Both the position numbers and the translations under genes were made by a program. DNA of 64,000 nt from an uncultured Gammaproteobacteria bacterium (lineage in GTDB: Bacteria; Patescibacteriota; Patescibacteriia; UBA9934; CAZDDW01). Below the pieces are notes generated by a model. That model did no database searches. It had not been told where the DNA came from and worked only from the letters and a program-made list of their open reading frames with translations. Positions 2,509 through 46,250 of this stretch are shown here, in pieces. Within the stretch, counting starts at the first letter, position 1, and every line of letters begins with the position of its first letter. The stretch spans positions 545,237 through 609,236 of the forward strand of contig OZ246408.1 of NCBI GenBank assembly GCA_965231015.1, written 5' to 3'.

Positions 2509-2745
2509 CTATAGGAGAGGGGGTGGACTATTGTTGTGGTCTCTTAGTGAAGCACTCACCACCAGCGAGACCGCTCCGATTGATGTAATAATGAATCCGA
2601 TTATCACCACAGCGTCGGTGCCGAATCTGATATGGTTATGATCACGTAAGAGTAGGTAGGACCCAAGGGTCAGGGCTCCGAGAATCGAACAGATTAGACC
2701 CACAGTGCTGAAATGCTCATGGACAGGTTTCTTGAGGTGCCTCAT
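2509..2745 (-). CDS. Small two-TM membrane protein, unknown function
   Basis: The ORF track lists 2509-2754 with a GTG start. The ATG at 2745 overlaps the upstream stop as ATGA, a translational-coupling arrangement. There are two hydrophobic helices, each followed by LRDHN, which looks like an internal duplication. GC is elevated relative to the flanks. Confidence 0.5.
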   Translation of the reverse strand: MRHLKKPVHEHFSTVGLICSILGALTLGSYLLLRDHNHIRFGTDAVVIIGFIITSIGAVSLVVSASLRDHNNSPPPLL

Positions 2746-3227
2746 TCCATGCACTCCGCTTCGCGGGCTGGGTCACAGCTCCACTTGCACCCGTCTTCTA
2801 GCAGAATATCAGCAAACATGAGATCGAACAGGTTCGGGCTCAAGCCCAATCGAATCGAGGAGACGTCACCGTATGGGAAGCACTCATAGGCAAACAGTGG
2901 CTTGTACTGATGTCCGTCTGGAAGGTCGACCCAACCGTCAGGGGCGTCGTGGACTGCTCGGTACACGAGCGTGCTCTGGAAGCACCGGTCCCAACCTATG
3001 ATGACGTTGTCCCCAACCTTCTCTGTCGGCGCACAGACCGTGTTGGTGATCTTCCAGGACCCGACCGAGGAGGTGGTCGAGTTCATGTCGGTTCCCCGCT
3101 GGTCGATCATCCTGGCTTCCCTGATCACCGTGAAGATGACGAGAATCAACAGCAGAAGTCCGATCGGGATAACGGCCTTTTTGCTAATCCACTTTTCAAG
3201 CCAAAGCTTGATTCCTTGAATGAACAT
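2742..3227 (-). CDS. Membrane-anchored Cys-containing protein, unknown function
   Basis: 161-aa ORF with an N-terminal TM anchor (AVIPIGLLLLILVIFTVI), then a domain of about 110 aa containing 7 Cys. A strong SD (GAAGGGGG) lies 7 nt upstream of the ATG. GC is elevated. Confidence 0.55.
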   Translation of the reverse strand: MFIQGIKLWLEKWISKKAVIPIGLLLLILVIFTVIREARMIDQRGTDMNSTTSSVGSWKITNTVCAPTEKVGDNVIIGWDRCFQSTLVYRAVHDAPDGWVDLPDGHQYKPLFAYECFPYGDVSSIRLGLSPNLFDLMFADILLEDGCKWSCDPAREAECME

Positions 3228-3454: not shown

Positions 3455-4096
3455 CTACACCTCGGCTTTTTCCGCTTCTTCAATAATATCTTTAACCTTC
3501 ATCAAGGTAATCAGTGTGTCTCGTTCCTGTTCGGCCAACTTGTTCTGAATATACTTAATTGTTTCAGTCATTCGTGGAATGTAAACGTATTCCAGGGCAT
3601 TAACTCGACGGCGAGTTTTTTCAATCTCTTCAGCTAAAAGCTTGGCAGAGTGTTCAACCTCGGCCAAGCGCACCATGTCCTTGAGGGTAGTTGAAAAACT
3701 TTCCAGCGCCACGTCCAGTTCCGAACTAGTCAAACTGAATCCGTAACTTAGAAAGTCCCCTTCTTCCTGATACTCAAATTGTGGCACTTCCACACTCATT
3801 ACGTTCTTGATGTCAGCTTTGAGTGTAGTCCTCATACTAGGGAGCAAAAACGCGCTTTTAAGAAGCTCCGGTGGAGTCTTGGCTCCAGCAAAGAGAAAGG
3901 CCTGGAAGCCGGTCTCAAGCTGCTTTTCAACGCTCTCACGCAAGTCTTTGGCCTCTCGAATGATGGCCATGAACTGCTTCATGAGTCCGTCGCGTTTATC
4001 TTTAAGCAACTTATAACCACGCTTATTGGTTTTAAGCTTTGTCTTGAGCTTTAGGAGCTCCTGTCGAGTTGGATTTACGCCCAGTGCATTTGCCAT
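3455..4096 (-). CDS. atpD: V/A-type ATP synthase subunit D
   Basis: 213 aa. The N-terminus NPTRQELLKLKTKLKTNKRGYKLLKDKRD is typical of the subunit D coiled coil. It is the last gene of the operon. Confidence 0.9.
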   Translation of the reverse strand: MANALGVNPTRQELLKLKTKLKTNKRGYKLLKDKRDGLMKQFMAIIREAKDLRESVEKQLETGFQAFLFAGAKTPPELLKSAFLLPSMRTTLKADIKNVMSVEVPQFEYQEEGDFLSYGFSLTSSELDVALESFSTTLKDMVRLAEVEHSAKLLAEEIEKTRRRVNALEYVYIPRMTETIKYIQNKLAEQERDTLITLMKVKDIIEEAEKAEV

Positions 4097-4108
4097 AAGT
4101 TATTGCTT

Positions 4109-4168
4109 GTGGCACGTGGCTCGTGGCACGTCGTTCTGATCGACGTGCGACGTGCAATTTGCGACGTG
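4109..4168. repeat. Intercistronic cluster of short direct and inverted repeats (C[G/C]ACGTG family) between atpB and atpD
   Basis: GTGGCACGT occurs twice (4109-4117, 4123-4131) and CGACGTG three times (4141, 4148, 4162). CACGTCG at 4127-4133 is the inverted copy and can form an 8-bp stem, GCACGTCG-7 nt-CGACGTGC. Confidence 0.75.
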
Positions 4169-4183
4169 CAGTTTAAAGATATT

Positions 4184-5572
4184 TTATTTTTCTGCTTTCG
4201 GAAGATATTTATCAATGTGGTTTTCCTTAACGCGCTTTAACTCTCGGATTGGGAGGATGCTCATCAATTTCCAACCAATGGTTAAAGTGTCTTCAATGGT
4301 TCGGTCTTCGTTCTTTCCCTGAGTGATAAACTCAGCTTCAAACGCTTCAGCGAACTTGATATAAGCACGTTCGGCGTCAGACAAAGCTGACTCACCAAGG
4401 ATCACAGCCAACTCTCGAGCTTCTTTTCCGGTAGCGTACGCCGCAAACAGCTGGTTAGCTACTCCGGAGTGATCCTCACGGGTCTTCCCTTCCCCAATAC
4501 CCTTTGACATCAGTCGTGAGAGTGAGGTGAGTGGGTCAATGCAAGGGTAAATTCCCTTTCGATAAAGTTCTCGTGATACCACAACCTGTCCCTCAGTAAT
4601 ATAACCGGTAAGGTCGGGAATTGGGTGAGTTTTATCGTCTTCAGGCATGGTCAGAATTGGAATCTGAGTCACAGAACCATATCGCCCCTTAATTTTTCCG
4701 GCTCGTTCGTAAATGGTGGAAAGGTCTGTGTACATGTAACCAGGATATCCGCGTCGTCCAGGAATCTCTTTTCGCGCTGCTCCAACCTCACGCAAAGCCT
4801 CACAATAGTTGGTAAGGTCAGTGAGGATTACAAGCACGTGCTTACCTTTTTCGTAAGCCAGGTACTCAGCAGTAGTTAGGGCCATTCGTGGCAAAGTGAT
4901 TCGTTCAACTACCGGATCATCAGCCAGGTTGATAAAGAGCACTGATCGCTCAATAGCTCCGGTCTTCTTAAACTCGTTGATAAAGAATTCTGATTCCTCA
5001 AAGGTGATTCCCATCGCTCCAAACACAACAGCAAACTCTTCATCGTCTCCACCTTCTCCAACTACTTTCGCCTGACGCGCAATCTGCGCAGCGATTTCGT
5101 TGTGCGGAAGCCCGGCCCCAGAGAAGATCGGAAGCTTTTGTCCTCGCACCAAGGTATTCAATCCGTCAATGGTTGAAATACCGGTCTGATAAAAGTCTTC
5201 AGGCATTTCTCGTGAGAACGGATTAATTGGAGCACCGTTGATGTCTAGGTGTTTTTCCGGAATAACTTCCGGCATACCATCGCGTGGCTCAGCCATTCCA
5301 CTCATGACACGTCCCAGCAAATCGGTTGAAACACCAACCTGAAGGGTTTTACCAAGAAAGGTCGCACTAGACTTGTCAACGTCAATTCCGGTGGTTCCTT
5401 CAAACATCTGCACCACAGCGTGCTTGTCAGTAATCTCAAGCACTCGTCCTTTGCGGCGCTCACCATCAGCCAATTCCACCTCAACCATTTCCTCGTACAT
5501 CACATCTTTAATTTTGTCGACGATTACGAGCGGCCCTTGGACTTCTTTGATTGTCTTGTATCGTTTTTCCAT
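4184..5572 (-). CDS. atpB: V/A-type ATP synthase subunit B
   Basis: 462 aa with conserved [19 protein letters not shown] and [29 protein letters not shown] blocks. Confidence 0.95.
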
Positions 5573-5577
5573 ATGTC

Positions 5578-7332
5578 CTAGGATTTTGCGGTTAAGTTAG
5601 AAAGAGCGCCTTTGGCATCCTTAGCAAGTTTATCCAGATTATCTTCATTGGTTTCCATCTTAGCCTTTGAGATGGCTTCTTTAATGTCGAGTCCGGTCAT
5701 ATCCTTTACTTTGACATCCTTTTCAACTGCCTCAAGGGCCGCTTCATGGAAGCTTAAGATGGCTTTCATCATCAGATACATTCGTTTTGGTGGGGTGTAT
5801 CCGTCAACTTCGTCAAAAGCAAACTGTTGTAAGAAGTCTTCTCGGATTGACTTTGCGGTTTCCAGCACCACCTGCTCTTTTTGTGAAAGCGCGTCAAGCC
5901 CAACCAGTTTCACAATTTCTTGCAAACTGGCTTCTTCCTGCAAAATTCCCATAGCCAGCTTTCGCATTTCGGGCCAGTCGTTACCCATATTTTCCCGGGT
6001 CCAGTCTTCAATGTTGTCTAGGTAAAGTGAGTAAGAGCTCAACCAATGAATCGCTGGGAAGTGTCGTCGATTAGCGAGCCCGGCATCCAGTCCCCAGAAA
6101 ACCTTAGTCACACGCAGGGTGTTCTGGGTCACAGGCTCGGACAGGTCTCCACCCGGAGGGCTAACCGCACCGATAACTGTCAAAGTTCCCTTTCGGTCAT
6201 CTTCTCCCAGACAGTCAATTGCACCAGCTCGTTCGTAGAAAGCGGCAGTTCGTGAACCAAGGTACGCCGGGTAGCCTTCTTCACCAGGCATTTCCTGAAG
6301 TCTTCCCGAAATTTCTCGAAGCGCCTCAGCCCAACGTGAAGTTGAGTCAGCCATCAGCGCAACGTTGTAGCCCATGTCTCGGAAGTACTCAGCCAGAGTG
6401 ATTCCGGTGTAGATTGAGGCTTCTCGTGCCGCCACAGGCATGTTTGAGGTGTTAGCAATCAAAGTTGTTCGTTCCATGAGTGGTTTACCGGTGTTCGGGT
6501 CTTCAAGTTCCGGGAACTCAACCAGTACGTCAGTCATCTCATTTCCACGCTCACCACAACCAATGTAAACAATCACGTCAGCGTCAGCAAATTTAGCCAG
6601 CTGCTGCTGAGTAACGGTCTTCCCTGCTCCAAACGGTCCGGGAATACACGCAGCCCCACCCTTTACTACTGGGAAGAACGCATCAATGATTCGTGTTCCG
6701 GTAATAAGTGGAGTTTTTGGCATCAGTTTTGCTTTGTACGGCCGCGGTTTTCTAATTGGCCAGTACTGAAGCATCTGAATTTCTGTGCCGTCTACTGTGG
6801 CAATAGTTTCAGTAATGTTGAACTGCCCGCTCTTAATTCCTGAGATCTTTCCATTGACTCCGGGCGGAACCATGATTTTATGTTCAATGAGCTCTGTTTC
6901 TTGGACAGTACCAATTACGTCTCCTTCGGCAACCGGTTCACCATCACTGACAGTGGCAACAAAGTCCCACTTTTTTTCCCGGTCAAGTCCGGGAACATCA
7001 ATTCCTTTAGTGATGAATGGTGATTGAGCTTCTTTTTCAATCAGCTCCAACGGTCGTTGCACACCGTCGTAAATTGATTTTAAGATTCCAGGACCAAGCT
7101 CGGCTACGAGTGGTTGACCGGTCATGTAAACCGGGTCCCCCGGCTTAAGACCTGCCGTGTCCTCGTAAACCTGAATAGAAGCCTCGTCGCTCTCCAACTT
7201 GATGATTTCACCCACGAGTTTTTTCTCGCCGATTTTCACCACGTCATACATTCGGGCGTTATTCATTTCTTTGGCTACCACAAGTGGTCCCGAGACCTTG
7301 ATGATCAATCCAGATTTCTCTTGATCAGTCAT
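5578..7332 (-). CDS. atpA: V/A-type ATP synthase catalytic subunit A
   Basis: Walker A motif GPFGAGKTV, plus [28 protein letters not shown] moved the start to Met17 ([16 protein letters not shown]), which removes the overlap with atpF. Confidence 0.95.
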
Positions 7333-7336
7333 AAGT

Positions 7337-7666
7337 TTAGTTATTAAATAAGATATCACTGCCAACAGCCTGTTCAACAATCTTTTTAAGATTGCTCAAG
7401 CCTTCCTTGGTTGCACCTTGCGGTGAAGGAACAGTTACAATTGCCGGCAAGGCCTCGCGTTCAAAGGCAGTGTCGAGTTCACTCCGAACCCGCCCGGCCC
7501 AGTCTTCGGTAATGAAGATTGCGCCAAACTGATCCGCCTTGATTTTGGCAATAATGTCTTGAATCTCATCAGTTTCTTTGATCGGAAAACACTTCACACC
7601 CAGGGCAATAAAGCCCATGATTGCTTCTTCGGTTCCTATCATGCCGATTTTGAATTCGTCAGACAT
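7337..7666 (-). CDS. atpF: V/A-type ATP synthase subunit F
   Basis: 109 aa. Position, size and the [19 protein letters not shown] motif all fit subunit F. Confidence 0.8.
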
Positions 7667-7667
7667 A

Positions 7668-8666
7668 TTAGTAACTGTTAACTAAGTGTTTGCGTATAGT
7701 GCTTGGCTCAATTTCGCCAAACTTCAAAGCCATGATAGTGGAAAGGTTTTTAATGGCATATTTTTTTCCAAAAAAGTACGCCACCACCACTTCTGGACCA
7801 TAGCCAATTAGTTTAGCGCTTTTGAGATGATCTATAATCGCATTATTAATGCCCTGCTCCAGGTGCCAAATCTGCTTATCTTTTAAGTATTCATCCACGG
7901 CTTCATTTATTATGTTTGGAAAATAATCACGAAGTCGGGTTATGAATTCCGCATCGTCAGCGGCTTCATAGTTTTCTAAGAAGCGGCTGGCCGGGATATG
8001 GCCGAAGTCGTTTAAACGTTCAGCTACCCAGGTTTTTCCTTTTTGAAGTCGTCGAGCTCGCAAGAAAATGCTCAGGTTATTTTTATCAGCGAGCATTTTG
8101 TATAGTTCGATGATAAATTTGTTTCCGGTTTTTTCGGCCAGTCTTCGGTTGCGTCGATTCATGCGGACATCAACCAGGTTCTCGATGCGTTCCGGGTCTG
8201 CATCATCTCCGATTTGCTTCTTTAGTTCGTTGATATCGTTTTTGATTTTTGGGTCAAGGTCTGTATCCAGCTCATCAATGATGTAGCGTCGTAGTTTGTC
8301 TGTTGGGATTAACCCCGGACTGGTTTCTAAGTGCGAGGCAAAATCACTCCCGGATAATTTTTCCTTGAAAAGAATTTTGATATTGTAGTAGTCGCGTTCC
8401 AAAAAAAGGAGTCGCATCAACACTTCATCAGGAATTATCTTTTCAAAGACTTTTTTAAGCCGATTCATCTTCCGACTCATGGCCACACGGTAATCCTTGG
8501 CCTCCAAATCCAAAAGTTCCCCGGCATAGTCCAGGCTGTTAAAAGCCTTAAAGGCAATGTCAGGTGTTTTGGCGTCAATCACTCGCGTCATGTCAGCCTC
8601 GCTTAAAAGGTGTCGCTCCAGGACTCTGACTTTGGCGCTAGGATAGATGTAGGTATCGCGGGTCAT
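7668..8666 (-). CDS. atpC: V/A-type ATP synthase subunit C (d-type)
   Basis: 332-aa all-helical protein lying between E and F in the operon. Confidence 0.8.
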   Translation of the reverse strand: MTRDTYIYPSAKVRVLERHLLSEADMTRVIDAKTPDIAFKAFNSLDYAGELLDLEAKDYRVAMSRKMNRLKKVFEKIIPDEVLMRLLFLERDYYNIKILFKEKLSGSDFASHLETSPGLIPTDKLRRYIIDELDTDLDPKIKNDINELKKQIGDDADPERIENLVDVRMNRRNRRLAEKTGNKFIIELYKMLADKNNLSIFLRARRLQKGKTWVAERLNDFGHIPASRFLENYEAADDAEFITRLRDYFPNIINEAVDEYLKDKQIWHLEQGINNAIIDHLKSAKLIGYGPEVVVAYFFGKKYAIKNLSTIMALKFGEIEPSTIRKHLVNSY

Positions 8667-8675
8667 GGGACTTGG

Positions 8676-9248
8676 TTATTCTGATTCGTTAAACAGGATA
8701 TGATGGACATCAATCAGGGTCTCTTCTCGAAGATTTTCCAGAATTGACTCAAAGGTACTGTCTAGGTCAATCAGTTCACCGTGGAAAATGAATCCACCAA
8801 TGGTTTCAATTGGCTCTTGATTAACCTTGGCCTTAACACCGGCTTTTTTAGCCGCCGCTTCCAAAGACTTAATCTTGTCCGTGCCAGTAGAGAGGGTTCC
8901 CTCCTCCTCTTTTAGTGGAGCCAATAGTTTAGCCAACAGGCTTTCATAAGACTTGGTATCCATTTTGGTAAGATCGTTTTTTACAGTTTTGAATACCTGG
9001 TCAAGCTGGGCCTGTTTAGCTTTGAGGACTTCTGAATTAACCTTTTCGCTGATCTTAAATTTCGCTTGGGCAAGCTTGGCTTCGGCTCGCGTGGTCATTG
9101 ACTTAAGCAAACGCTCACGCTCTGAAGCAGTCAGATCGTCCCATTCTTTTCGAGCAGCGGATAGTTCTTCCTCGGATCGCTTAGCGATCGCCTCTACCTC
9201 AGCCTTAGCCTTGTCCCTAATCGATTTTTGAATGTCAGTTAGGGCCAT
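8676..9248 (-). CDS. atpE: V/A-type ATP synthase subunit E
   Basis: 190 aa with a long N-terminal charged coiled coil and a globular C-terminus. Operon position fits. Confidence 0.8.
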   Translation of the reverse strand: MALTDIQKSIRDKAKAEVEAIAKRSEEELSAARKEWDDLTASERERLLKSMTTRAEAKLAQAKFKISEKVNSEVLKAKQAQLDQVFKTVKNDLTKMDTKSYESLLAKLLAPLKEEEGTLSTGTDKIKSLEAAAKKAGVKAKVNQEPIETIGGFIFHGELIDLDSTFESILENLREETLIDVHHILFNESE

Positions 9249-9250
9249 AT

Positions 9251-9742
<492 letters not shown>

Positions 9743-9751
9743 TTAATTAAT

Positions 9752-11713
9752 TTATTCCACCAAGCTAACGTATTTAGCTTGTTTGATTAATGGTTTGAAT
9801 TTTCGGCCACCACCGACCATAAACTTCGGGAAATACTCCACGTATTGCAAACGTCCGGAGTGAATAAAGGCTCCCAGAACGTTGATGGCAAGGTTAAATA
9901 GGTGTCCGCCTACAATAATCACAATCCACACCAAGAATCCCACGTAAGGCACCATTCCAGCAAACAAATCCGCGACCAGGTTCACAACCATGGCAATAAT
10001 TCCAGTTGAAAGCCCCAGGGCTAGCAAACGTGAATATGAAAGAATATCTGATAGGTATCCGACCAGTCCGTACAAACTAGAAATTCCACCCAACAGTTTC
10101 ATCACAGGGTTCTTTTTCTCGTAACCCTGACTCAACACCATAACCCCGGTCCATCCAAGGACTAAATATAGAGCTATTTGAGAAGCACTAGCGAAAAGTC
10201 CGGCCATGGTAGCGATCCAGAATCCGATAATCAGTAAATAAATTGCCCAGAAACCGCTAGTGATAATTCCCTCTTTAGCTTCTCCGTGCGTAATCTTCCA
10301 GAACATGTTGACCAGGTTACCGACCACCATTTGAATGAAGCCAAGGATAAAACTCATAACGAGTACGGTCATCGGGTTGGCTACCGGATCAATCAAACGA
10401 ATTGATTCAAAGAAGTTTTTAAGCGCCCCATCAGGCAAATCTGTGATAACAATTCCGAACCATCCACCAAACAGGGCTCCAATAATGAACGTTGCGATTC
10501 CACCAAACATCATCAAGCTCATGAGTTTGCGCGCTCCACCCTTTGGTTTCATAAGTTTAATCGCGGCAAACGACAAAATCGCCAATAATAGTCCGTATCC
10601 AGCGTCAGTGAGACACAGCGCAAAGTATAAAATGAAAAATGGAGCCAGGTAAATCGTTGGGTCAGGTTCAGAGTAAAGTGGTGCTCCGTAGATTTCTGTG
10701 ACTGATTCAAATGGAGTAATAGCTTTGTTATTTTCAAGGGCAACCGGAATGTTTTCGTCTTCACGAATTGCTAGTTCTTCTAAAACATACTCTTTTGATA
10801 CCGCACTTAACTTATCCCTCATTTCTCCCATGGCACCAGTAGGCATCCATCCGGTAAAGATAACGGTCTGTTTGGTGGACAAAGCCTTTCGAGCCGCCTC
10901 ATCCTGATCTTTTTGCCAGGTCAAATAGTCGTATAAAATTCGAAAATCCGGAATGTGTTTAATGTATTCTTTGATGGCGGCCTTGGTTTCCCGCACCACG
11001 ACCCGGTCTTTTTCAATTTCACGCTCCAAGTTCTTAATTTCTGACTCAATGGTCTGCCCTTTTGCAATGGGCATATCCACAGCTTTAAACTCATTCACTT
11101 CAAAAGCGTCTTTGAGATCATCATGAATTGTCTTGTCATAGGCAACCACAACCCGTACTTCTTTATCGGTTTCACTGACTTTTAGAACAACTGCCAGTTG
11201 TTTCGCGTGTAAGGCAGACTCAAAATCCTCAAAGCGGGTAATTGGCACAATGCCCAGCACAAAATCAACAAAACGAGTTGACTCTGATAAATCAACCGGT
11301 ATTCCCTGCCATTTGGCCAGGTTTTTGACCTCTTTTTTGTTTTGACTGATTCGGTTTTTAGCCGCATTAAGGTCTTTATCTAGGTTTTCTAACTCCTGAA
11401 TCAGGTTTTTATAGTCAAAATTCGCCAGCAACTTAGCAAAGTCATTCTGGCGAACCTCAATTTTCCCTCCTTGTAGTTTTTCCAAAAAGCTCTTTTTTAC
11501 CTCTTCTTCGTACGGTGTAAGCAGGTCAAGGGCGAATTTAATGTTAGTTTGCCAGTATTCTGCTTTAGATTCCGGCTTAAATAAGTCTTTTTCTTCACTT
11601 TCTTCCAAGGCCTCAACCTCCATGATTCCCTCGGTATGCAAAATATCCAAAAGACGTGGATAAATCTCTTTGGTAGCAGTAAGTTGGATTTTTGTCATTT
11701 TACTGACTGACAT
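9752..11713 (-). CDS. atpI: V/A-type ATP synthase subunit I (a-type stator)
   Basis: 653 aa with a cytosolic coiled-coil N-half and a multi-TM C-half containing LSYSRLLALGL. The start may instead be Met6 (11698). Confidence 0.9.
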   Translation of the reverse strand: MSVSKMTKIQLTATKEIYPRLLDILHTEGIMEVEALEESEEKDLFKPESKAEYWQTNIKFALDLLTPYEEEVKKSFLEKLQGGKIEVRQNDFAKLLANFDYKNLIQELENLDKDLNAAKNRISQNKKEVKNLAKWQGIPVDLSESTRFVDFVLGIVPITRFEDFESALHAKQLAVVLKVSETDKEVRVVVAYDKTIHDDLKDAFEVNEFKAVDMPIAKGQTIESEIKNLEREIEKDRVVVRETKAAIKEYIKHIPDFRILYDYLTWQKDQDEAARKALSTKQTVIFTGWMPTGAMGEMRDKLSAVSKEYVLEELAIREDENIPVALENNKAITPFESVTEIYGAPLYSEPDPTIYLAPFFILYFALCLTDAGYGLLLAILSFAAIKLMKPKGGARKLMSLMMFGGIATFIIGALFGGWFGIVITDLPDGALKNFFESIRLIDPVANPMTVLVMSFILGFIQMVVGNLVNMFWKITHGEAKEGIITSGFWAIYLLIIGFWIATMAGLFASASQIALYLVLGWTGVMVLSQGYEKKNPVMKLLGGISSLYGLVGYLSDILSYSRLLALGLSTGIIAMVVNLVADLFAGMVPYVGFLVWIVIIVGGHLFNLAINVLGAFIHSGRLQYVEYFPKFMVGGGRKFKPLIKQAKYVSLVE

Positions 11714-12059
11714 AGTCCTGGAAGCGATCGTTCACAAGTTTTACAGCCTTAGATAAGCGTTGGTCTGAACCCTTTTCAAGCTCAGCTAAGCGCTTTTTTA
11801 GCTCTGCAGTGGCAGTTTCTTTAAAGGTTTGGGCGTCAGCCTGCACTTTTTCAGCAATAGTGCTGTTTTCTTTGGTTAAAGTGTCAGCCACGTGAGCAAA
11901 TTCATACTGCATTTGCTCCTCAAGTTCAGCCTTTTTTTCTTGGGCGTTGCTTTCTGCTTTGGCAATCAAAGACTCGGCTTCTGCCTCGGTGTTCTTGATT
12001 TGCTTAATACTGGTTTGGTCAGTCATAAAATTTTGTAAAATTGCGGCTAAAGTATACAT
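11700..12059 (-). CDS. V/A-type ATP synthase peripheral-stalk subunit (G/H type)
   Basis: 119-aa charged coiled coil and first gene of the operon, as in the Thermus-type G-I-K(L)-E-C-F-A-B-D order. The start is uncertain (Met1 or Met12). Confidence 0.6.
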   Translation of the reverse strand: MYTLAAILQNFMTDQTSIKQIKNTEAEAESLIAKAESNAQEKKAELEEQMQYEFAHVADTLTKENSTIAEKVQADAQTFKETATAELKKRLAELEKGSDQRLSKAVKLVNDRFQDYVSQ

Positions 12060-12119
12060 CGAATCTGTTTTTGGGTCAATAGCATAAAAAAATTATGAAA
12101 TTAACTTAAATAAAGAGAA

Positions 12120-12151
12120 GAACGCCGATCCGTGAAGTTGGAAAGGCGTTC
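12120..12151 (-). terminator. Terminator-like hairpin after the 303-aa island gene
   Basis: GAACGCC-18 nt-GGCGTTC, followed on the minus strand by CUUCUCUUUAUUU. Confidence 0.45.
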
Positions 12152-12177
12152 GTGAGGTAGGGGTTGCGATCGAAGTC

Positions 12178-13089
12178 CTAGGGGGTGGACTCCTCGTTGA
12201 GCAGCTCCGGGTCGATGTTGTCGGTCAGGATCCCGGAGAGATCCGCGATTAGGCGGTTTCTGACGAATGGGTCCAGACCGGGCTCCAGCTCTTGGAAGCG
12301 GAGTTCGCGGATGCGCTCTTTGAGCTGGGCGTTTTTGCCCTTGGTGTACTCGGTCAGGCCAAGCACCCATTGGCGCTGCCAGGCCTGATGAGCGCGCAGC
12401 TCGCCCTTGCTCGGAGCTGGCGAACGCTTCGGGGTGAGCCGCGAGCGCACCGACTTGACCGTAGGAGTACCCTTGGGTACCGCCTTCGCCTCCGGCTTGG
12501 TGCCGGTTCCCTGCCCGAGTGTTTGCTGTTTCGGGTTCGCAGCTCCGGGAAGTTGGCCGACGAGCGAAGGAGCGGCAGGGTGCTCCGTGTTGGTAGGTTC
12601 GTCCGCCTTCGCCTTCGCCTCCGGCTTGGTGGCTCCGGGCAGTGCACCCTTGAGAACGGGTTCAGCCGGTGGCTCGTTAGTTCCCTCGTGCGGATCCGGC
12701 CTGCCGAGAATCGCGGCCGCCTCGCTTTCGAGCGGCCTGCGCTCGAGGTTGTGCCGCGCCGTCAAGTACTCGATCATGCACGGCAGGTAAACCTCGAGAT
12801 CGAACTCGTAGTCCAGGTCGTGCCCGGCAGCCTCGAGCTCTTGCTTGATGGCGGCAAGCGGGTCAGCCTCACCGGCCTTGGTATCCGAGGCCCTGAACAG
12901 GTCCTTCGGAAACTCGACCTTGAGCGGGTCGCCCAAGATCTGCTCGGCTCGCTCGTTAAAGTACTGTTCCGCCTCCGGCTCGGAAACAGCCGCTTCGAAC
13001 CGAGGGCTTGACTGGTCGACCCCGTCAGTGCGCTCACCGCGCAGTACGGCCAGACACGCGTCCAGAAACGCCAAAATTTTCGGATCCAT
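12178..13089 (-). CDS. Hypothetical protein (GC3-rich island gene A)
   Basis: 303-aa ORF whose codon third positions are almost all G/C in this frame. A strong SD (GGGAGGGAGGAAGCA) sits directly upstream of the ATG. It has a Pro/Ala/Lys-rich central linker with TKPEAKA repeats. I recognise no family. Confidence 0.6.
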   Translation of the reverse strand: MDPKILAFLDACLAVLRGERTDGVDQSSPRFEAAVSEPEAEQYFNERAEQILGDPLKVEFPKDLFRASDTKAGEADPLAAIKQELEAAGHDLDYEFDLEVYLPCMIEYLTARHNLERRPLESEAAAILGRPDPHEGTNEPPAEPVLKGALPGATKPEAKAKADEPTNTEHPAAPSLVGQLPGAANPKQQTLGQGTGTKPEAKAVPKGTPTVKSVRSRLTPKRSPAPSKGELRAHQAWQRQWVLGLTEYTKGKNAQLKERIRELRFQELEPGLDPFVRNRLIADLSGILTDNIDPELLNEESTP

Positions 13090-13192
13090 TGCTTCCTCCC
13101 TCCCGTATTTTTTGTGTTCGGTTTTTTAATTTTTCACCATAAGTCAATTTGGCGGTGTTCCGCCACAAAGAAAGAATGGCGGGAGACAGCTA

Positions 13193-13272
13193 AAAATAGC
13201 ACAAAAACAGACTTTTGTCAAGTTCTAGACACAAAGTACATACTTGACAAATATGCTAAATTGTGCTAAATT
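13193..13272. promoter_or_regulatory. Back-to-back divergent promoters built on a 10-bp perfect inverted repeat
   Basis: The inverted repeat is TTTGTCAAGT (13214-13223), 18 nt, ACTTGACAAA (13242-13251). The right arm gives TTGACA (13244-13249), 17 nt, TGC-TAAATT (-10 at 13267-13272) on the plus strand. The left arm gives TTGACA (complement of 13215-13220), 16 nt, TGC-TATTTT (-10 at the complement of 13193-13198) on the minus strand. TGCTAAATT is also directly repeated (13255-13262 and 13265-13272). Confidence 0.6.
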
Positions 13273-13403
13273 TTGCGGTTGGTTGAGGGCAATTTCGTCC
13301 TTAATTACGTTCGTTTCCCCAGACTGTGGGTAAAAGGTCCCACACTCCCAACACGCGCGCATCGCAGGTAAGTCGATGCCAACCGGGAGAGAAAGAGGAA
13401 GAC

Positions 13404-15056
13404 ATGACCACCGAAAAGAACCTGACGCCGGAGCAGATCCGGCACAACGAGATGGTAAAGCGGGAAGCGCTCGAACAATTCCGCATGGCCAACGTGCGGA
13501 TGGACAAGCGGGGCGGCAACCGTCCCGTGGGCATGGGCGATCTCGTGGAGATCGTGGTCCCCGGGTTCTCCGAGGACCAGTTCGGGAACGCCGTGGCCTA
13601 CGACGAGGACGGGACGTTGATCCGCCCGCTGTGGGCGCTCGATAACGGCTTCGTGCCGGTGCTCGCCGTGCCCATGCGGCTGTGGGTCGTGTACCCGCGG
13701 TCGCGCACCTTCGCCCGGAACAAGTACGGGGTGGCGATCCCGTTCGACATCGTCTACTTCAAGGGGAAGGGACTCGGCTTGTGGAACCACAAGCTCTCGG
13801 ATCGGTGTGAGTTCCGGAACGCCGTGGCCGTGCGGCAGACCCGTACGGTCATGGTGGCCTTCGAGCCGAACCCGCGGCGCAAGGACGAGTGGCACGGCGG
13901 ATTCGTCGGCGGCAAGCACATCGTGTGGAAGCCGCACGGCAACCCGTACGAGAACTCGGGCGTCGAGATTGGCATGCCGATCGAGGTCCAGGCAAGTGAG
14001 TCCTGGGATCGGATCGAGTGTCTGCCGGCCGTGCAGACGCGTCGGGTCAAGGCCGACGGTTCCGTTGAGGAGCTCGAGGTCCAGACCGCTCTGGTGGACG
14101 TGGCGCTCAAGCCTGGACAGATTCAGTGTCGGGCGAGCGGTGTACGCCTGTGGGCGCTCGACGCTCTGGGCGTCAAGCGTCACACCGACGAGGCGGTACT
14201 GGATCGGCGGATCGCCGAGATGCTCGCCACGCGCGGTGAGCGGCTCAATCCGGAGACCGACCCGTTCTGCCTCGCGGCCAAGGCCGCCGGCAGCACGGTG
14301 GACTACCGTCTCGCGGGCGTGAACGCTCGCGAGGTGGCCATCAAGAACTCCGGCTCGATCCTGCGCCCGAAGGCGCCGAAGATCGGACACGTGGCCATCT
14401 TGCACCCGGAGACCGGAGCCAAGATCTGCGACGTGCTGATCGAGGACGTGCTCGGGGGTGACCTCTCCATCTACTCGTCGCGCGACGAGGTGATGGCTCG
14501 GTTCAATCAGCTCAAGCGCTACCGGCGCAGGAGCTACGCCGAGCACAACGACGATGACACCATCGTCGAGGCCGTCAAGGCCGTGTTCAAGCGGTTCGGC
14601 GTGCACCTGGAGGTGGACAACAAGATTCGCTCCCAGGTCGGCGAGGACGCCACCCGCGCTCTGCTCGAGCGGCTGATCTCCCGGGGGAGCATTCGCTTCA
14701 AGCCGGCGCGGAGCCGCTCCGAGCTCGTGGTGAGTGCCTACGCGGTGCTCGGCCTCGAGTCCTCTGACGCGGACGAGGACAGCGTGTTCAAGCGCTTCCG
14801 CGAGCTCTACTTCGTCAAGAAGGGCAAGGTGGAGCGGGAGGATCCGGCCGTGATGGTCCTCTACAAGTCTCCGGGCTACAGGTCGAACCCCAACCAGAAC
14901 AAGGGGTACAACGACCGCCGGGCACTTATGCGAACCGCGGGAGAGCACCTGATGGGTGCGGACCGGTTCAAGACGGCGCTCACCCCGCCGGAGGAGCCGA
15001 AGTCCGAGTTCGACAACGAGGCCGAGGAGCTTCGCAGCTCGTCCGACGACGAGTAG
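13404..15056 (+). CDS. Hypothetical protein (GC3-rich island gene B)
   Basis: The ORF track lists 13326-15056. I prefer the ATG at 13404 because it is preceded by the SD AAGAGGAAG. About 550 aa, GC3-rich in this frame only, with a soluble-looking amino acid composition and no motif I recognise. Confidence 0.6.
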   Translation: MTTEKNLTPEQIRHNEMVKREALEQFRMANVRMDKRGGNRPVGMGDLVEIVVPGFSEDQFGNAVAYDEDGTLIRPLWALDNGFVPVLAVPMRLWVVYPRSRTFARNKYGVAIPFDIVYFKGKGLGLWNHKLSDRCEFRNAVAVRQTRTVMVAFEPNPRRKDEWHGGFVGGKHIVWKPHGNPYENSGVEIGMPIEVQASESWDRIECLPAVQTRRVKADGSVEELEVQTALVDVALKPGQIQCRASGVRLWALDALGVKRHTDEAVLDRRIAEMLATRGERLNPETDPFCLAAKAAGSTVDYRLAGVNAREVAIKNSGSILRPKAPKIGHVAILHPETGAKICDVLIEDVLGGDLSIYSSRDEVMARFNQLKRYRRRSYAEHNDDDTIVEAVKAVFKRFGVHLEVDNKIRSQVGEDATRALLERLISRGSIRFKPARSRSELVVSAYAVLGLESSDADEDSVFKRFRELYFVKKGKVEREDPAVMVLYKSPGYRSNPNQNKGYNDRRALMRTAGEHLMGADRFKTALTPPEEPKSEFDNEAEELRSSSDDE

Positions 15057-15064
15057 ATCCTACC

Positions 15065-15088
15065 AAAAAAACAGCCGGCAACCGGCTG
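15065..15088 (-). terminator. Rho-independent terminator of the 15140-15982 gene
   Basis: The minus-strand RNA reads CAGCCGG-UUG-CCGGCUG followed by UUUUUUU. Confidence 0.6.
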
Positions 15089-15100
15089 CCTTCCAAACAG

Positions 15101-15140
15101 AGGGCGCTCATCACAACGATGTGCGCCCTTATCATTTTAT
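15101..15140 (+). terminator. Terminator-like hairpin for island gene B
   Basis: AGGGCGC-15 nt-GCGCCCT, followed by UAUCAUUUUAUU on the plus strand. Confidence 0.4.
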
Positions 15141-15982
15141 TAATAAAGATCAGTTAGTTCCATTGTGCCATCTTCATAAATCCAAGCATGAAACTGTCCA
15201 ATCTTGGTCATTCCTTTTCCTGAAATATCAACAGCATAGGCCTCAATCAAATGAGTTCGGTTATCTTTTAGCTTTTGAGGTATATCAATATGCGCATTAA
15301 AGCCATGATAACTATCGTACAAACATCCTGAAAAAGCACTTAAAAGATCTTGCCTGGAATTCTCGGCAATAACGGTGTCCATATAGAAACCATCTCCGTA
15401 GATCATAACTGGCACCCGAATATTATCAACATTATAGGTGTCAAAATCAATGGCCCAACCTGAAACGACATCACTTCTGGCAGGGATATCATCAAAGCTA
15501 CCTTGAACTCCATCGTTGATTGGATCCATGGTTATACTTCCAATGTAGGCTACTTCAGAGCCAGACCAAACTACCTCATCATGTGAGGCAAAAACGTAAA
15601 TAGTGTGTGTCTGTCCATCGTACAAAGTTGGATTTACTTCCCACCCAAAACCACTTTTTAAGGACACGTTTTCATCGTAGTACTCATAGACATCATATCG
15701 GGACAAGTAAGTAGTTTGTTGACCTAGGATTTCGTTGTAATTAAAAGTATCGGAAAGAGTGAAAAAAACATACATCGGTGTTTCGGAATCAGTGGTGTCA
15801 ACAACCCAACCACGTACCATGGCACTGTTGTTGCAAGAGGAATCAGTTTGTCCCTGGATATTGTCAACCGAACCCTCGATTGTTCCTGCAGCCTTTGTTA
15901 TGTTTGAGGTGAAATAAAATCCACCGGATCCGATTGCAACTGCCAACGTGGCAATCAGAAATCCCTTGAAGAAATAATTCAT
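15140..15982 (-). CDS. Secreted or membrane-anchored protein with two tandem repeat modules, unknown function
   Basis: Start moved to Met25 (MNYFFKGFLIATLAVAIG signal/anchor), which removes the overlap with tatD. There are two similar modules: GSVDNIQG...VRGWVVD...THTIYVFA and GSFDDIPA...VSGWAIDF...THLIEAYAVD. Confidence 0.6.
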   Translation of the reverse strand: MNYFFKGFLIATLAVAIGSGGFYFTSNITKAAGTIEGSVDNIQGQTDSSCNNSAMVRGWVVDTTDSETPMYVFFTLSDTFNYNEILGQQTTYLSRYDVYEYYDENVSLKSGFGWEVNPTLYDGQTHTIYVFASHDEVVWSGSEVAYIGSITMDPINDGVQGSFDDIPARSDVVSGWAIDFDTYNVDNIRVPVMIYGDGFYMDTVIAENSRQDLLSAFSGCLYDSYHGFNAHIDIPQKLKDNRTHLIEAYAVDISGKGMTKIGQFHAWIYEDGTMELTDLY

Positions 15983-15992
15983 ATATAATTTA

Positions 15993-16874
15993 TTAAAAGT
16001 TAATATTAAAAAGTTTTTTAGCATTATTATTTGTCGCTTCAGCGACTTCCTCAACAGTAATTCCTTTTAGTTCGGCAATCTTTGCTGCAATATGTTTAAC
16101 GTAAGACGGTTCATTGCGCTTTCCTCGATTAGGTTCAGGTGACAAATACGGGGCATCGGTTTCAACCATAATCATATCGAGTGGAACCTCTTGAACCAGC
16201 TTCTGGAGTTCAGTTTCCTTGATCCCGGCCAATCTTTCAGATCGTTTTGGTGTAAAGGTAATAATGCCGGTGAATGAGATGAGAAAACCGAGTTCGAAGT
16301 ATGCTTGAGCTTCATCAACAGTGCCGGTATAACAATGTACCACCCCTCTTCTTTTCATTTTTCCGGCCTTCACGTATTCACTTAGGATTTCAAGCTGATC
16401 TGCATGTGAGTCTCGTGAGTGAATTATAACTGGCAAATTAATTTCGTTGGCCAAATCCAAATGTGCTCGCATGGATCGTTTTTGTTCTTTGATCAACTCG
16501 TCTCGATCAAACTTTTCCGGCAAATGTAAATAATCCAGGCCAAACTCACCGATGGCTATAACTTTTTGGTCTTTGGAGAGCTCACGATAAAAACTTGGAT
16601 CAAATTGTTCGCACCGCGTTTTTACTGTCGCGATATCTTCAACTTCGTTAGGGTCAGTGAATTCTTGCTCACACAAATGATTCGGGTGCAAACCAATGGC
16701 CGCCCAAACCCCGTCATATTGATTAGCAACTTCTACGGCACGACGACTGGTGTCTTGCTGGGTCCCAACTGTAATCATAAAAACGTTCTCAGCCAAAGAA
16801 GTCTTTATTACTTCATCCATGTCACTCTTGTACGCGTTAAAATGAACGTGGCAATGGGTATCAATCAATTTCAT
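15993..16874 (-). CDS. tatD: TatD-family metal-dependent hydrolase (DNase)
   Basis: MKLIDTHCHVHF N-terminal metal motif, and 293 aa of TatD-type TIM-barrel pattern (GEFGLDY, HSRD, VETDAPYL). Confidence 0.85.
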   Translation of the reverse strand: MKLIDTHCHVHFNAYKSDMDEVIKTSLAENVFMITVGTQQDTSRRAVEVANQYDGVWAAIGLHPNHLCEQEFTDPNEVEDIATVKTRCEQFDPSFYRELSKDQKVIAIGEFGLDYLHLPEKFDRDELIKEQKRSMRAHLDLANEINLPVIIHSRDSHADQLEILSEYVKAGKMKRRGVVHCYTGTVDEAQAYFELGFLISFTGIITFTPKRSERLAGIKETELQKLVQEVPLDMIMVETDAPYLSPEPNRGKRNEPSYVKHIAAKIAELKGITVEEVAEATNNNAKKLFNINF

Positions 16875-27906: not shown

Positions 27907-29310
27907 CTAAAGGAATTGGTTGATAATAACAAAGCCGCTGAAAAATCCAAAGAACACGAAAATTCCGGCTAGTATTATCCTTCTTAAAACGGTTGGTTGG
28001 TAGGCCTTGGGTAAAGCTCTAAAGTTCAAGACCGAGACTAAACCAATATGAACGAACATGGCTACGGCATTAATTACTGCCCCAAGTACCAAGAGTGATT
28101 TTGGTTCAGAAATTCCAAAAGCAAACAGAATTATCCCGAACGCAATTTGAGCCCACAAAAAGATGTAGTAAATCTTTGAGAGTTGAATTTTATTATTTCC
28201 AGTTCTTTTAGTCTGAACAATAGCAGCATTTTCGGCCATAATGCGAGAGGTTGAGTCCATGACACCAAGTTGGGTCTGAAAAAGCATGACAGCTACGACT
28301 AACAAGAATGCTGCACCGATTGCCGGGCCAAGTATGGAGCCTATGACCATACCCTCATTGATCACAAACTGAATTCCCTCTGCGTTGCTTTCCATGCCTG
28401 CGGTTGTCGTATGAGCCAAAAGCATTAGAAGCAAGATGGAGACAGCCCCAATGAACCAGAACACGATTGCATGTTCTGTACTTATGCGGCGCCACCAGAT
28501 TCTAAAATAACTAATATCCTGCTTTGATTCGCTTGCGGTTACTCCTTCAAGCCTAATTTTTTGGACTACACCGTCAGCTCGAAACAGGCCAGCCAAACGC
28601 TCGGCGTACTTCCCCATCCCATATCCCTTCTCTTTCACATAAATCGATTGGGTCAAGTTTAAGTTTCCTCCGGCTCCAGAATAGGCAAACGCAGCCAAGA
28701 AAGTGGCTAAAACAATTCCCTCGGGTAAGAAACTGTATTCGTTGCCTTGCCCGATAATTCCTGAAGCAAGTGCTGCCCAGTCGGCTTGTGTTGCAACAAC
28801 AATCGCCAGAATAAACACCAATGGCACTCCGATTAAAATGATTGATCTTGTTAGACTCTCCATCAAACCGTAAACCGTTTTTCCAGAGCTAAGAATTAAT
28901 CCGATCACGATCAGGAACAAGATAGCGGTCGCTGTGTAGTAGTTTTCCAGACCAACAAGAGTTGAGAATACATGAGCTGAAGCCGCAATAATTCCCGGAA
29001 GTCCAAAGCCGATAAAGGTTGATAGGATAAACCAAAAAGGTGCCGCTTTTAAGTACTTGGCGATTCCAACAAAGACACTCTCGCCCTTAACAAGCGCGTA
29101 TCTTTCAATTTCCATATTAATAAAATATTGAAAGGTGATTCCAAGTACAGCCCCCCAAGCAATACCAAGCCCATAGTTTGAAGCTAAATATGGCCACAGA
29201 ATAACCTCGCCCGAACCCAAACCAAGAGCCAAAATAATAAAACTTGGTCCTATAAGTTTCTTAAGCCGGATTGGTTTTGGAAAAGGTTTTGTTGTGGTCG
29301 ACTTTGGCAT
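27907..29310 (-). CDS. Nramp-family-like multi-TM transporter
   Basis: 467 aa, about 11 TM helices. The N-terminal GPSFIILALGLGSGEVILWP and QYFINMEIERYAL resemble Nramp/MntH-related transporters, with GSGE in place of DPGN. Confidence 0.55.
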   Translation of the reverse strand: MPKSTTTKPFPKPIRLKKLIGPSFIILALGLGSGEVILWPYLASNYGLGIAWGAVLGITFQYFINMEIERYALVKGESVFVGIAKYLKAAPFWFILSTFIGFGLPGIIAASAHVFSTLVGLENYYTATAILFLIVIGLILSSGKTVYGLMESLTRSIILIGVPLVFILAIVVATQADWAALASGIIGQGNEYSFLPEGIVLATFLAAFAYSGAGGNLNLTQSIYVKEKGYGMGKYAERLAGLFRADGVVQKIRLEGVTASESKQDISYFRIWWRRISTEHAIVFWFIGAVSILLLMLLAHTTTAGMESNAEGIQFVINEGMVIGSILGPAIGAAFLLVVAVMLFQTQLGVMDSTSRIMAENAAIVQTKRTGNNKIQLSKIYYIFLWAQIAFGIILFAFGISEPKSLLVLGAVINAVAMFVHIGLVSVLNFRALPKAYQPTVLRRIILAGIFVFFGFFSGFVIINQFL

Positions 29311-45462: not shown

Positions 45463-46250
45463 AAATGAAATGCGCTCAAATAGTATTCAATCACGTGCTC
45501 ACCAAAGAAAAGCATGGCTATGGCCGCACCAGACAAAAATGTGCCAAAGGCGATTTTAGTTTGCATGTTGACTTTTTTGGCTAAAATGAGACCGATTGAG
45601 AAGATGGCACCTGCTATATAGGCAAAAAAGAGTGTGGCCAATCCGTTCCAAAGTCCCAGCATTAATCCAATCACAACACCTAGTCGAATATCCCCGCCCC
45701 CAATCCAGCGTCCCTTAGAAACCATAAATTGCATTAAAAAAAAGATGCCAAGTACGGCTGCTCCATACAGCAATAAGCTGGGCGGAAAGCCAAGAGCCAG
45801 GTTTATCAACAAAGCCACGAACATAGCCGAAACACTGAACCGATCCGGAATAATCTGATAACGCAAGTCATAAACAAAAATCAAAATCAAAAAAGAGACA
45901 AAAATACAATCTCGAATGATCAGCCAAAGAATTAGTTCTGGGCTAACCGGTGAAAATAGAAACCAGCCATACCAGTAGTGCGCAAAGACAGCCACAAACA
46001 AGACTGCAGTCGCCAGCTCTACTGCCGGATACTGAAGACTGATCTTGTTTCTGCACTTCCGGCACTTGGCTCGCAGAATAATCCAGCTGGCCACAGGGAT
46101 TAAATCAAACCAGGCAATTGGTTGTTGGCAGTGTCGACAAATAGAGCGACGTGATTTTTTGTCCAAGGGTTCATAGGTGCGTGAAATCACGACATTCAAA
46201 AAACTGCCTACCCCGAGACCCAAAACCATAAATAATAACGCCATAAACAT
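45459..46250 (-). CDS. Prepilin peptidase (A24 family)
   Basis: N-terminal CxxC pairs (CRHCQQ, CRKCRN) and the GGGDIRLG active-site region, in a multi-TM protein. Confidence 0.85.
   Translation of the reverse strand: MFMALLFMVLGLGVGSFLNVVISRTYEPLDKKSRRSICRHCQQPIAWFDLIPVASWIILRAKCRKCRNKISLQYPAVELATAVLFVAVFAHYWYGWFLFSPVSPELILWLIIRDCIFVSFLILIFVYDLRYQIIPDRFSVSAMFVALLINLALGFPPSLLLYGAAVLGIFFLMQFMVSKGRWIGGGDIRLGVVIGLMLGLWNGLATLFFAYIAGAIFSIGLILAKKVNMQTKIAFGTFLSGAAIAMLFFGEHVIEYYLSAFHL

Follow-up and report, generated by a model that had tools for sequence, protein, structure and literature searches.

In a stretch of 64,000 nucleotides of contig OZ246408.1 (the window, whose coordinates are used throughout), from a reduced genome of ~43% GC, two divergently oriented genes, gene A (12178-13089, minus strand, 303 amino acids) and gene B (13404-15056, plus strand, 550 amino acids), carry coding sequences (CDSs) that are strikingly rich in G and C at third codon positions (GC3). 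We favour, at a probability of roughly 55%, the explanation that this is a vertically inherited, lineage-specific pair whose GC-rich CDSs are held by selection, most likely on the transcript. In the common ancestor of six lineages of one Patescibacteria (candidate phyla radiation, CPR) clade, Uhrbacteria/Falkowbacteria-like in affiliation, the pair would already have stood between the V/A-ATPase operon and tatD; two near-consensus sigma-70 promoters, long leaders and strong Shine-Dalgarno (SD) sites would drive it, unlike its short-leader, SD-less neighbours; selection against G/C-to-A/T changes would confine the extreme GC3 and the raised GC at first and second positions (GC1, GC2) to the translated regions; and the likeliest target of that selection would be the transcript, as GC-rich, highly folded mRNAs that may be long-lived, nuclease-resistant or translationally controlled. 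Both open reading frames (ORFs) had been called in a first-pass annotation made from the letters alone, and they are present as it described them.

The compositional anomaly is sharp and is restricted to the two genes. The GC content of A is 0.64 and that of B 0.66, and in a sliding analysis of 300-nt segments the two genes appear as two plateaus of 0.62-0.69 (12.2-13.1 kb and 13.4-15.05 kb), with every one of the remaining 1-kb bins of the 64 kb lying between 0.36 and 0.50. Sliding GC and GC3 thus bear out the abrupt switch in composition and codon usage that had been claimed at both ends of the block. GC1, GC2 and GC3 are 0.69, 0.45 and 0.77 in A and 0.66, 0.42 and 0.90 in B, compared with 0.525 +/- 0.047, 0.358 +/- 0.036 and 0.423 +/- 0.061 in 50 host ORFs, which puts the GC3 of A ~5.7 and that of B ~7.8 standard deviations above the host mean; GC1 is up by ~3 standard deviations in the pair, and the anomaly touches all codon positions. 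The reading frames are backed by the periodicity GC3 > GC1 > GC2 and by alignment with orthologues, which also backs the start codons (ATG at 13089 for A and at 13404 for B). Several codons are missing from B altogether (AAA 0 of 31, TTT 0 of 20, TAT 0 of 14, CAT 0 of 11), 93% of its glutamates are encoded by GAG, and codons seldom used by the host, among them CGG, CTC, GGC and TCC, are over-represented in it. Amino-acid content is shifted in the same direction (Arg 9.6% vs 4.7%, Ile 4.0% vs 7.2%), and substitutions in the pair favour Arg for Lys, Val for Ile and CTN for TTR. The base avoided most uniformly in B is A at codon position 3 (A3), with a frequency of 0.01-0.04 in five lineages and 0.08 in the lineage L090, as opposed to 0.17-0.28 in host genes; T at that position (T3) has relaxed to 0.27 in L090. 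No 4-mer was outstanding when compared with synonymous shuffles (GATC showed a mild excess, z 1.2, and the SD-like GGAG a mild depletion), and the window ORFs that were scanned included no ribosomal-protein gene or other reference for high expression. A search of the literature returned nothing relevant on GC3 or codon-usage anomalies in Patescibacteria or on V-ATPase in Uhrbacteria.

Relatives of B, sought by word-based and exhaustive profile searches of 5.8 billion clusters and 1.84 billion representative proteins, are few, the complete list being P0002 (81% identity), P0003 (51%), P0006 (E 8e-53), P0007 (E 1e-24) and P0008 (E 6e-11). They fall in only four representative clusters among the 1.84 billion and come from five other lineages, all of them Patescibacteria (Uhrbacteria/Falkowbacteria-like), where NCBI labels them 'hypothetical protein' of Candidatus Uhrbacteria or Patescibacteria group metagenome-assembled genomes (MAGs); the methionyl-tRNA synthetase (MetRS) of the window is nearest to Falkowbacteria-labelled MAGs (55-58%). 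No homologue of A or B came up among viral contigs, phages or plasmids, or in those GTDB representative genomes that were searched, and efforts to expand the family yielded only the known contig (metagenome scan) or the same three proteins (profile word-search). A-like genes were linked by BLASTP in L088 and L091, and that of L090 was assigned from position only. In all six lineages checked, A and B co-occur as a divergent pair, as had been proposed for testing at the outset, and they do so in a common slot, in which the V/A-ATPase operon with its G-like first gene is followed by A (minus), B (plus) and a convergent tatD-cvpA-metG cluster. The flanks of L003, a short contig, are visible only as the G-like gene (72% identity) and TatD (84%). 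Divergence between these lineages is deep (identity of 51-90% for MetRS, 54-59% for V-ATPase subunit I and 72-85% for TatD), and the identity of B tracks that of the host, being 81, 36, 26 and 24% where that of MetRS is 90, 69, 51 and 55%.

Across the six lineages, the GC3 of B is 0.90, 0.92, 0.90, 0.87, 0.65 and 0.88 and that of A is 0.77, 0.80, 0.78, 0.69, 0.50 and 0.79, the fifth value being that of L090 in each case; the GC3 of neighbouring genes is 0.31-0.58, and the spacer between A and B has 39-45% GC in all six. Since the same slot with raised GC3 is seen in six deeply diverged lineages, the composition must be old rather than recent. The simplest history that these genomes suggest is a single origin in the ancestor of the clade, followed by vertical descent. 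Distant CPR outgroups with metG-cvpA-tatD have neither the V-ATPase nor the pair, and it is possible that the pair arrived together with the V/A-ATPase operon.

Comparison of the window with L001, the two closest of the lineages, indicates that the composition has been actively retained. Flanking genes are saturated at synonymous sites (proportion of synonymous differences, pS, 0.67-0.73; ratio of nonsynonymous to synonymous rates, dN/dS, 0.02-0.08), and a neutral foreign composition would therefore long since have decayed; pS is 0.34 in B and 0.53 in A. When synonymous third-position changes between the window and L001 were polarised by parsimony with L003 as outgroup, changes from G or C (strong, S) to A or T (weak, W) were ~3.4-fold suppressed (24 per 229 S sites in B vs 25 per 70 in TatD), whereas W-to-S changes were not elevated (6 per 26 vs 28 per 114) and exchanges between C and G were not suppressed (23 per 229 vs 5 per 70). 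The boundaries of the anomaly coincide with those of translation: a step in GC occurs at the start and stop codons of 12 of 12 genes, mean GC being 0.39-0.43 at -120 to -30, 0.60-0.62 at +30 to +120 and 0.40 again within 60 nt past the stop. The leaders of A (23-47% GC) are AT-rich in three lineages even though they are unconserved in sequence. The step at the CDS ends and the AT-rich, unconserved leader of A argue against a regional mutation bias or biased gene conversion. Gene B showed no polymorphism among four L003-type contigs. At the protein level the pair outpaces its neighbours in the deeper comparisons, nonsynonymous divergence (dN) between the window and L003 being 0.42 in B and 0.59 in A vs 0.09 in TatD.

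Because the anomaly does not extend beyond translated RNA and involves all codon positions, the transcript was tested as a target of selection. The mean minimum free energy (MFE) per 120 nt is -52 kcal/mol in B and -46 kcal/mol in A, compared with -22 to -30 kcal/mol in host genes. Each of the 12 cassette CDSs is more stably folded than synonymous shuffles in which amino acids, dinucleotides and codon usage are kept (z from -1.6 to -7.3, with a mean of -3.2). Mean z is -0.8 for 15 host genes (Mann-Whitney p 2e-4 against the cassette) and -0.2 for eight ORFs from GC-rich Acidimicrobiia loci (p 9e-4), and the excess is greater on the sense strand than on its complement in 11 of the 12. Between the window and L001, predicted base pairs of B are retained above partner-shuffled nulls (z 2.2 and 4.3), with 11 compensatory pairs vs 5.8 expected and 15 vs 5.2 expected, and MetRS shows none comparable. 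These data support RNA structure as one target of selection; as the cause of a GC3 of 0.9 it is not proven. In 2003, Katz and Burge reportedly described selection for local secondary structure in the mRNA of bacterial coding regions. The pair resembles that situation in folding beyond shuffles, with a bias to the sense strand and compensatory changes between close relatives, but differs from it in that such general selection brings no shift in composition, while the pair has a GC3 excess of ~50 points, confined to two genes and kept across order-level divergence. Synonymous-site signals have been reviewed (PMC3575835).

Several observations weigh against the explanation that we favour. Specific base pairs are not kept out to L003, and V-ATPase genes of ordinary GC content also fold in excess (z -1.4 to -3.9; VatB -3.9, VatD -2.4, VatA -2.2), so that selection on structure alone need not give a GC3 of 0.9. 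The cassette of L003 is more divergent than its flanks predict: B is 51% identical to that of the window, as against 81% in L001, although tatD of L003 (3798-4553 on that contig) compares with tatD of the window (15993-16874) at 84% amino-acid identity and pS 0.63, the values for L001 being 79% and 0.73. This discordance hints that alleles may have recombined or been exchanged here. The relaxed GC3 of L090 (0.65 in B, 0.50 in A) implies that the pressure differs between lineages, and the raised GC1 and GC2 could in part be inherited from a GC-rich origin or could reflect protein function. Moreover, the six lineages are not independent samples, extreme codon bias makes both the Nei-Gojobori (NG86) estimates of synonymous divergence and the parsimony polarisation, which involves small counts, approximate, and the transcription start sites are predictions.

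Among the rival explanations, the one that survives best, though we regard it as unlikely, is an ancient transfer into the clade ancestor, possibly with the V/A-ATPase operon, followed by codon-level translational control that keeps the composition. Here the G/C-ending codons that are rare in the host would make the pair dependent on particular tRNAs or tRNA modifications, or would let its mRNAs escape HigB-like ribosome-dependent RNases, which require codons that end in A or are A-rich. Codon-dependent gene regulation is known from bldA and TTA codons in Streptomyces and from codon-biased transcripts tuned by tRNA modification, and akin to these the pair is a small gene set written in genome-atypical codons; cases of the bldA/TTA type, however, use one or a few codons, in contrast to the wholesale GC3 of ~0.9 and the shifted amino acids of the pair, for which no dedicated tRNA was identified. 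The confinement of the anomaly to the translated region, the enrichment of B in host-rare codons and the absence of both V-ATPase and cassette from outgroup CPR bacteria with MetRS-CvpA-TatD all fit this explanation, as does the consistent avoidance of A3, in view of the preference of HigB for adenosine at the third A-site nucleotide (PMC5027501). Yet an A3 frequency below that of T3 is ordinary wherever codon usage is GC-rich, five of the six lineages strongly avoid T3 as well, pure codon choice leaves the shifts in GC1, GC2 and amino acids unexplained, and neither a toxin nor a special tRNA was identified, the window having only three tRNA genes.

Quite improbable in our view is GC-biased gene conversion at a recombination hot spot, where a fast-evolving locus exchanged among relatives turns GC-rich. 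The vls locus of Borrelia, a GC-rich antigenic-variation locus in an AT-rich genome, offers a parallel, and the rapid divergence of both proteins, the one case of discordance seen in L003 and the rise of GC at all three codon positions are as this explanation would have them. What tells against it is that GC steps at the CDS ends, leaving the leaders of A and the spacers AT-rich, that only S-to-W changes are suppressed with no elevation of W-to-S changes, that no paralogous or silent copies of the pair lie within the 64 kb, and that gene conversion does not predict a folding excess biased to the sense strand. To our knowledge, a GC3 shift of 50 points also far exceeds the effects of biased gene conversion reported for bacteria.

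The first-pass annotation had taken the block for a recently acquired module, and a recent horizontal-transfer island from a GC-rich donor would indeed account for a composition, codon usage and amino-acid content resembling those of a high-GC organism and for a self-contained unit with its own signals. Like genomic islands, the pair shows a sudden change in GC and codon usage, forms a self-contained block with promoters and terminators and consists of orphan genes. As opposed to such islands, it stands at the orthologous site in all six lineages, beside flanks that are saturated at synonymous sites, and we found no integrase or transposase among the neighbouring genes (in the window and in the gene tables of the relatives), no attachment site, no direct, inverted or terminal repeats around the block and no adjoining tRNA gene (the nearest of the three in the window is at 31.3 kb). 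Nor was a donor homologue found among the 1.84 billion representative proteins, viral contigs, phages and plasmids. The internal spacer, with its promoters, is AT-rich like the host and is conserved; there is no sign of amelioration, GC3 remaining at ~0.9 in five deeply diverged lineages with S-to-W changes suppressed; and the distribution is not patchy, the pair being absent only from distant outgroups that also lack the V-ATPase. The claim of recent acquisition is thus contradicted, and we consider such an island very unlikely.

We give as little weight to an overlapping gene that would run antisense to B (13305-14948, minus strand, 547 amino acids) and be kept open by the high GC3. The codon-aligned antisense frame is stop-free across 551 codons, four of six lineages have the frame open along all of B and L090 has it open for 459 of 484 codons, and pooled CTA and TCA codons are scarce (3 of 290, vs 68 of 1360 for other NNA codons). 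However, the frame is open because TTA, CTA and TCA codons are absent, and synonymous shuffles of the same codon usage are equally open (P = 1.0); Fisher tests per lineage are not significant, the frame is broken in L003, its GC1, GC2 and GC3 (0.90, 0.42 and 0.65) are not coding-like, and C-to-G and G-to-C synonymous changes, all of which are non-synonymous in the antisense frame, are unsuppressed. We have rejected the antisense gene on the grounds of codon usage and of these free C/G exchanges. Gene callers could nonetheless mis-annotate this ORF. An assembly chimera, that is, a contaminant joined into a low-GC contig, which had been named as the alternative to acquisition and would suit the abrupt change in composition at both ends, is scarcely credible given that 21,653 nt assembled independently by Logan from SRR7048224, both junctions included, show zero mismatches, that the same junction architecture recurs in five other lineages from other samples and that the block contains an AT-rich, host-like promoter region.

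The pair also carries an unusual set of expression signals. The spacer between the two genes (13090-13403; 314 bp, 44% GC) contains divergent back-to-back consensus promoters (13193-13272), identified from sequence and conserved in relatives, both with an extended -10 element: P_A (TTGACA-17-(TG)TATTTT, 13221-13193, minus strand) and P_B (TTGACA-17-(TG)TAAATT, 13244-13272, plus strand), with a TCTAGA palindrome between their -35 boxes. This promoter core is near-invariant in the window, L001 and L003, and the -35 boxes are still recognisable in L088, L090 and L091. The predicted 5' leader of A (13090-13186, minus strand; ~97 nt, 43% GC) is AT-rich and poorly conserved in relatives, and carries the SD sequence GGGAGGGAGG at 13094-13104; that of B (13280-13403, plus strand; ~124-125 nt, 53% GC) has its SD site at ~13386-13401. 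A hairpin in the B leader (13345-13389; inner stem GCATCG/CGATGC) shows two compensatory pairs in L003, although on its own it is not significantly stable (z -1.1), and no cis-regulatory or small-RNA family of Rfam was matched over 12.0-15.3 kb. SD sites precede A and B in all six lineages. As opposed to this, any SD-like motif is present in only 3-5 of 50 host ORFs, and many host first genes carry a TAnAAT-like box ending ~7-14 nt before the ATG (25 nt upstream of the 50 ORFs). Judged from these upstream sequences, the host lineage seems to use leaderless or very short-leader initiation, to which the SD-led pair would be the exception.

Each gene is also followed by its own intrinsic terminator. 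That of A (12108-12151, minus strand) is a GAACGCC...GGCGTTC hairpin with a U-rich tract (MFE -16.7 kcal/mol, z -3.67), and that of B (15100-15140, plus strand) is an AGGGCGC...GCGCCCT hairpin with a U-rich tract (15057-15140 folding at MFE -33.5 kcal/mol, z -6.9). The terminator of the convergent host gene at 15140-15982 (CAGCCGG..CCGGCTG followed by U7; 15065-15088, minus strand) marks the right border of the block. On these points the first-pass annotation holds: it had described a self-contained divergent two-gene module with purine-rich SD sites, leaders of ~95-125 nt (the predicted starts imply ~97 and ~125 nt) and hairpin terminators on either side (z -3.7 for A and -6.9 for B), set among host genes without SD sequences, and the pair does have its own promoters, SD sites and terminators.

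Neither protein matches a described family. A, B and their homologues matched no family in Pfam, PHROGs, NCBIfam, PADLOC or PDB sequence searches, whether as single sequences or as profiles, and no transmembrane segment or signal peptide was found in A or B, so the view that they belong to undescribed families and lack such segments is upheld; A and B are probably cytoplasmic proteins of new families. A known anti-phage defence or toxin-antitoxin system was considered and rejected: PADLOC gave no match for eight cassette proteins, and the genes are large, divergent and separately promoted. Protein A consists of an acidic N-domain (net -14), a linker rich in Pro, Ala, Lys and Gly, a K/R-rich helical segment and an acidic end. 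Its acidic N-domain and the repeated TKPEAKA (two copies, at residues 154 and 197, encoded by two copies of a 22-nt direct repeat at 12481-12502 and 12610-12631, minus strand) are as first reported, and of the basic C-domain assigned to it the K/R-rich stretch at about residues 205-262 (delimited by eye) stands, but the end that follows is acidic and residues 216-303 have a net charge of only +1. Orthologues of A are 61-65% (L001) and 38-41% (L003) identical, and across lineages the architecture is kept (acidic helical N-domain, disordered linker, basic helical segment) while the sequence is barely conserved. A is presumably a partner of B.

For B, an AlphaFold2 (AF2) model from a 6-sequence alignment was usable, a 3-sequence alignment reaching a predicted local distance difference test score (pLDDT) of only 41. 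The model, together with Foldseek, suggests a helix at residues 9-28 and one or more beta-rich domains, possibly OB/S1-like (oligonucleotide/oligosaccharide-binding), at residues 30-245, with five strands predicted at residues 148-208. The residues that are invariant in this region are W127, R144, F153, G170, K171 and W175. The best Foldseek matches of the beta-rich half were the HIN domains of AIM2, IFI16 and p202, ribosomal protein S1 and IF1/eIF1A, at E 0.02-1 and probability <=0.84 over ~70 residues, with low TM-scores and a regional pLDDT of 55-85. B is thus like the OB/S1/IF1/HIN-200 barrels in its best structural matches and in the clustering of W127, R144, F153, K171 and W175 in this region, and it differs from them in that no match reaches E 1e-3 and no sequence profile matches. 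The second half appears to contain two J-like helical modules, at residues 244-326 (14133-14381, plus strand), with 'NPETD' at the position of the J-domain HPD motif, and at residues 437-530 (14712-14993, plus strand), with 'REDP' there; the two are homologous to each other (hhalign probability 95.6%, E 1.2e-8). Across B members, the residues aligned with HPD are NPE(T)D, RPD and RSL in module 1 and EDP, EDV, SDA, KDP and DHP in module 2. When the modules were aligned with hand-entered J-domain sequences, hhalign returned E 2e-3 to 9e-3 at probabilities of 5-12%; Pfam gave zero matches at E<=1 for all six B members, J-domain PF00226 included, and NCBIfam gave a weak match to DjlA (E 0.07) for one B homologue only. 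Among known systems, the J-domain co-chaperones (DnaJ/Hsp40, PF00226) and HPD-less J-like domains such as those of Tim16/Pam16 come among the closest, but B is without HPD and without a Pfam or NCBIfam match, and it differs from J-domain proteins in having the J-like module duplicated inside a 550-residue protein with a beta-rich N-terminal half. None of the window ORFs scanned against Pfam was identified as a DnaK gene. The protein ends in an acidic tail of low model confidence (14994-15053, plus strand; net -6 over the last 30 residues), a feature it has in common with proteins of the single-stranded DNA-binding (SSB) type. Taken together, the models indicate that B probably combines OB/S1-like beta-barrel domains, a duplicated HPD-less J-domain-like helical module and an acidic tail, and its barrel domains may bind nucleic acid.

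The surroundings of the pair have peculiarities of their own. The V/A-ATPase operon (3455-12059, minus strand) is complete, in the order G-like, I, c, E, C/d, F, A, B, D, and is unusual for Patescibacteria. Directly downstream of its last gene, an ORF of 161 amino acids with an N-terminal transmembrane helix (2742-3227, minus strand) is alone among the remaining ORFs of the 64 kb in having a raised GC3 (0.72; GC 0.55); its purine-rich SD-like leader (AGAAGAGAGAAGGGGG) resembles those of A and B, it matches no family, and the folding excess is absent from its mRNA (z +0.96). Between B and tatD, a 280-residue orphan without a family match (15140-15982, minus strand), secreted or membrane-anchored, is present in the window and L001 only (77% identical) and absent from L003, L088, L090 and L091. 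The L001 and L002 contigs (runs SRR28370467 and SRR28370465) end at the same base, 161 bp past the A stop codon, on the side that holds the V-ATPase operon in other lineages; strain variation, or a change in coverage at the GC/AT boundary, may have broken the assembly at this shared end. Three large ORFs of host composition, 36696-38663 (plus strand, 655 amino acids), 57696-59435 (minus strand, 579 amino acids) and 27907-29310 (minus strand, 467 amino acids), have no Pfam match at E<=1e-5. The window further encodes two adjacent genes with TrwB/TraG/VirD4-type coupling-protein ATPase domains (59813-63067, minus strand), PilM (47179-48297) and a prepilin peptidase (45459-46250), which are DNA-transfer, uptake or pilus machinery that may matter for episymbiosis.

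In light of the above, our working model is of a strongly promoted cytoplasmic pair in which B would bind nucleic acid and/or a chaperone-type partner; selection on RNA as the cause of the composition, high expression, nucleic-acid binding and the partnership of A and B are what we infer from these data. A broader proposal, which we offer tentatively and which as a whole is more doubtful than the explanation above, joins to the selected transcript the idea of a 'privileged expression channel': consensus promoters, SD-led initiation and GC-rich, folded coding RNAs, long kept in an AT-rich, SD-less and near-leaderless genome, would let both lineage-specific proteins be made at times when the bulk of AU-rich mRNAs cannot be translated or is broken down, such as dormancy, phage attack or a shutdown brought about by toxins or RNases. 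In a more extreme version, which is possible, the signals would fit expression in the GC-rich host cell of an episymbiont, as a bacterial analogue of T-DNA genes. We found no matching family or precedent for the pair, which does not in itself demonstrate a new mechanism.

The pair is a natural counter-example to the notion that a sharp compositional island signifies recent horizontal transfer, and detection of transfer based on composition would mislabel it, given a GC3 of 0.9 in a 43%-GC genome and a deep divergence. It provides a measurable case of strong synonymous-site selection in a bacterium, and it places two modes of expression side by side in one CPR genome, that of near-leaderless, SD-less genes and that of a long-leader, SD-led pair. 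A and B constitute two new families restricted to a V/A-ATPase-bearing clade of Patescibacteria, which appear to be strongly promoted and fast-evolving, and they are candidates for a part in episymbiont biology, be it in stress and dormancy, nucleic-acid handling or interaction with the host.

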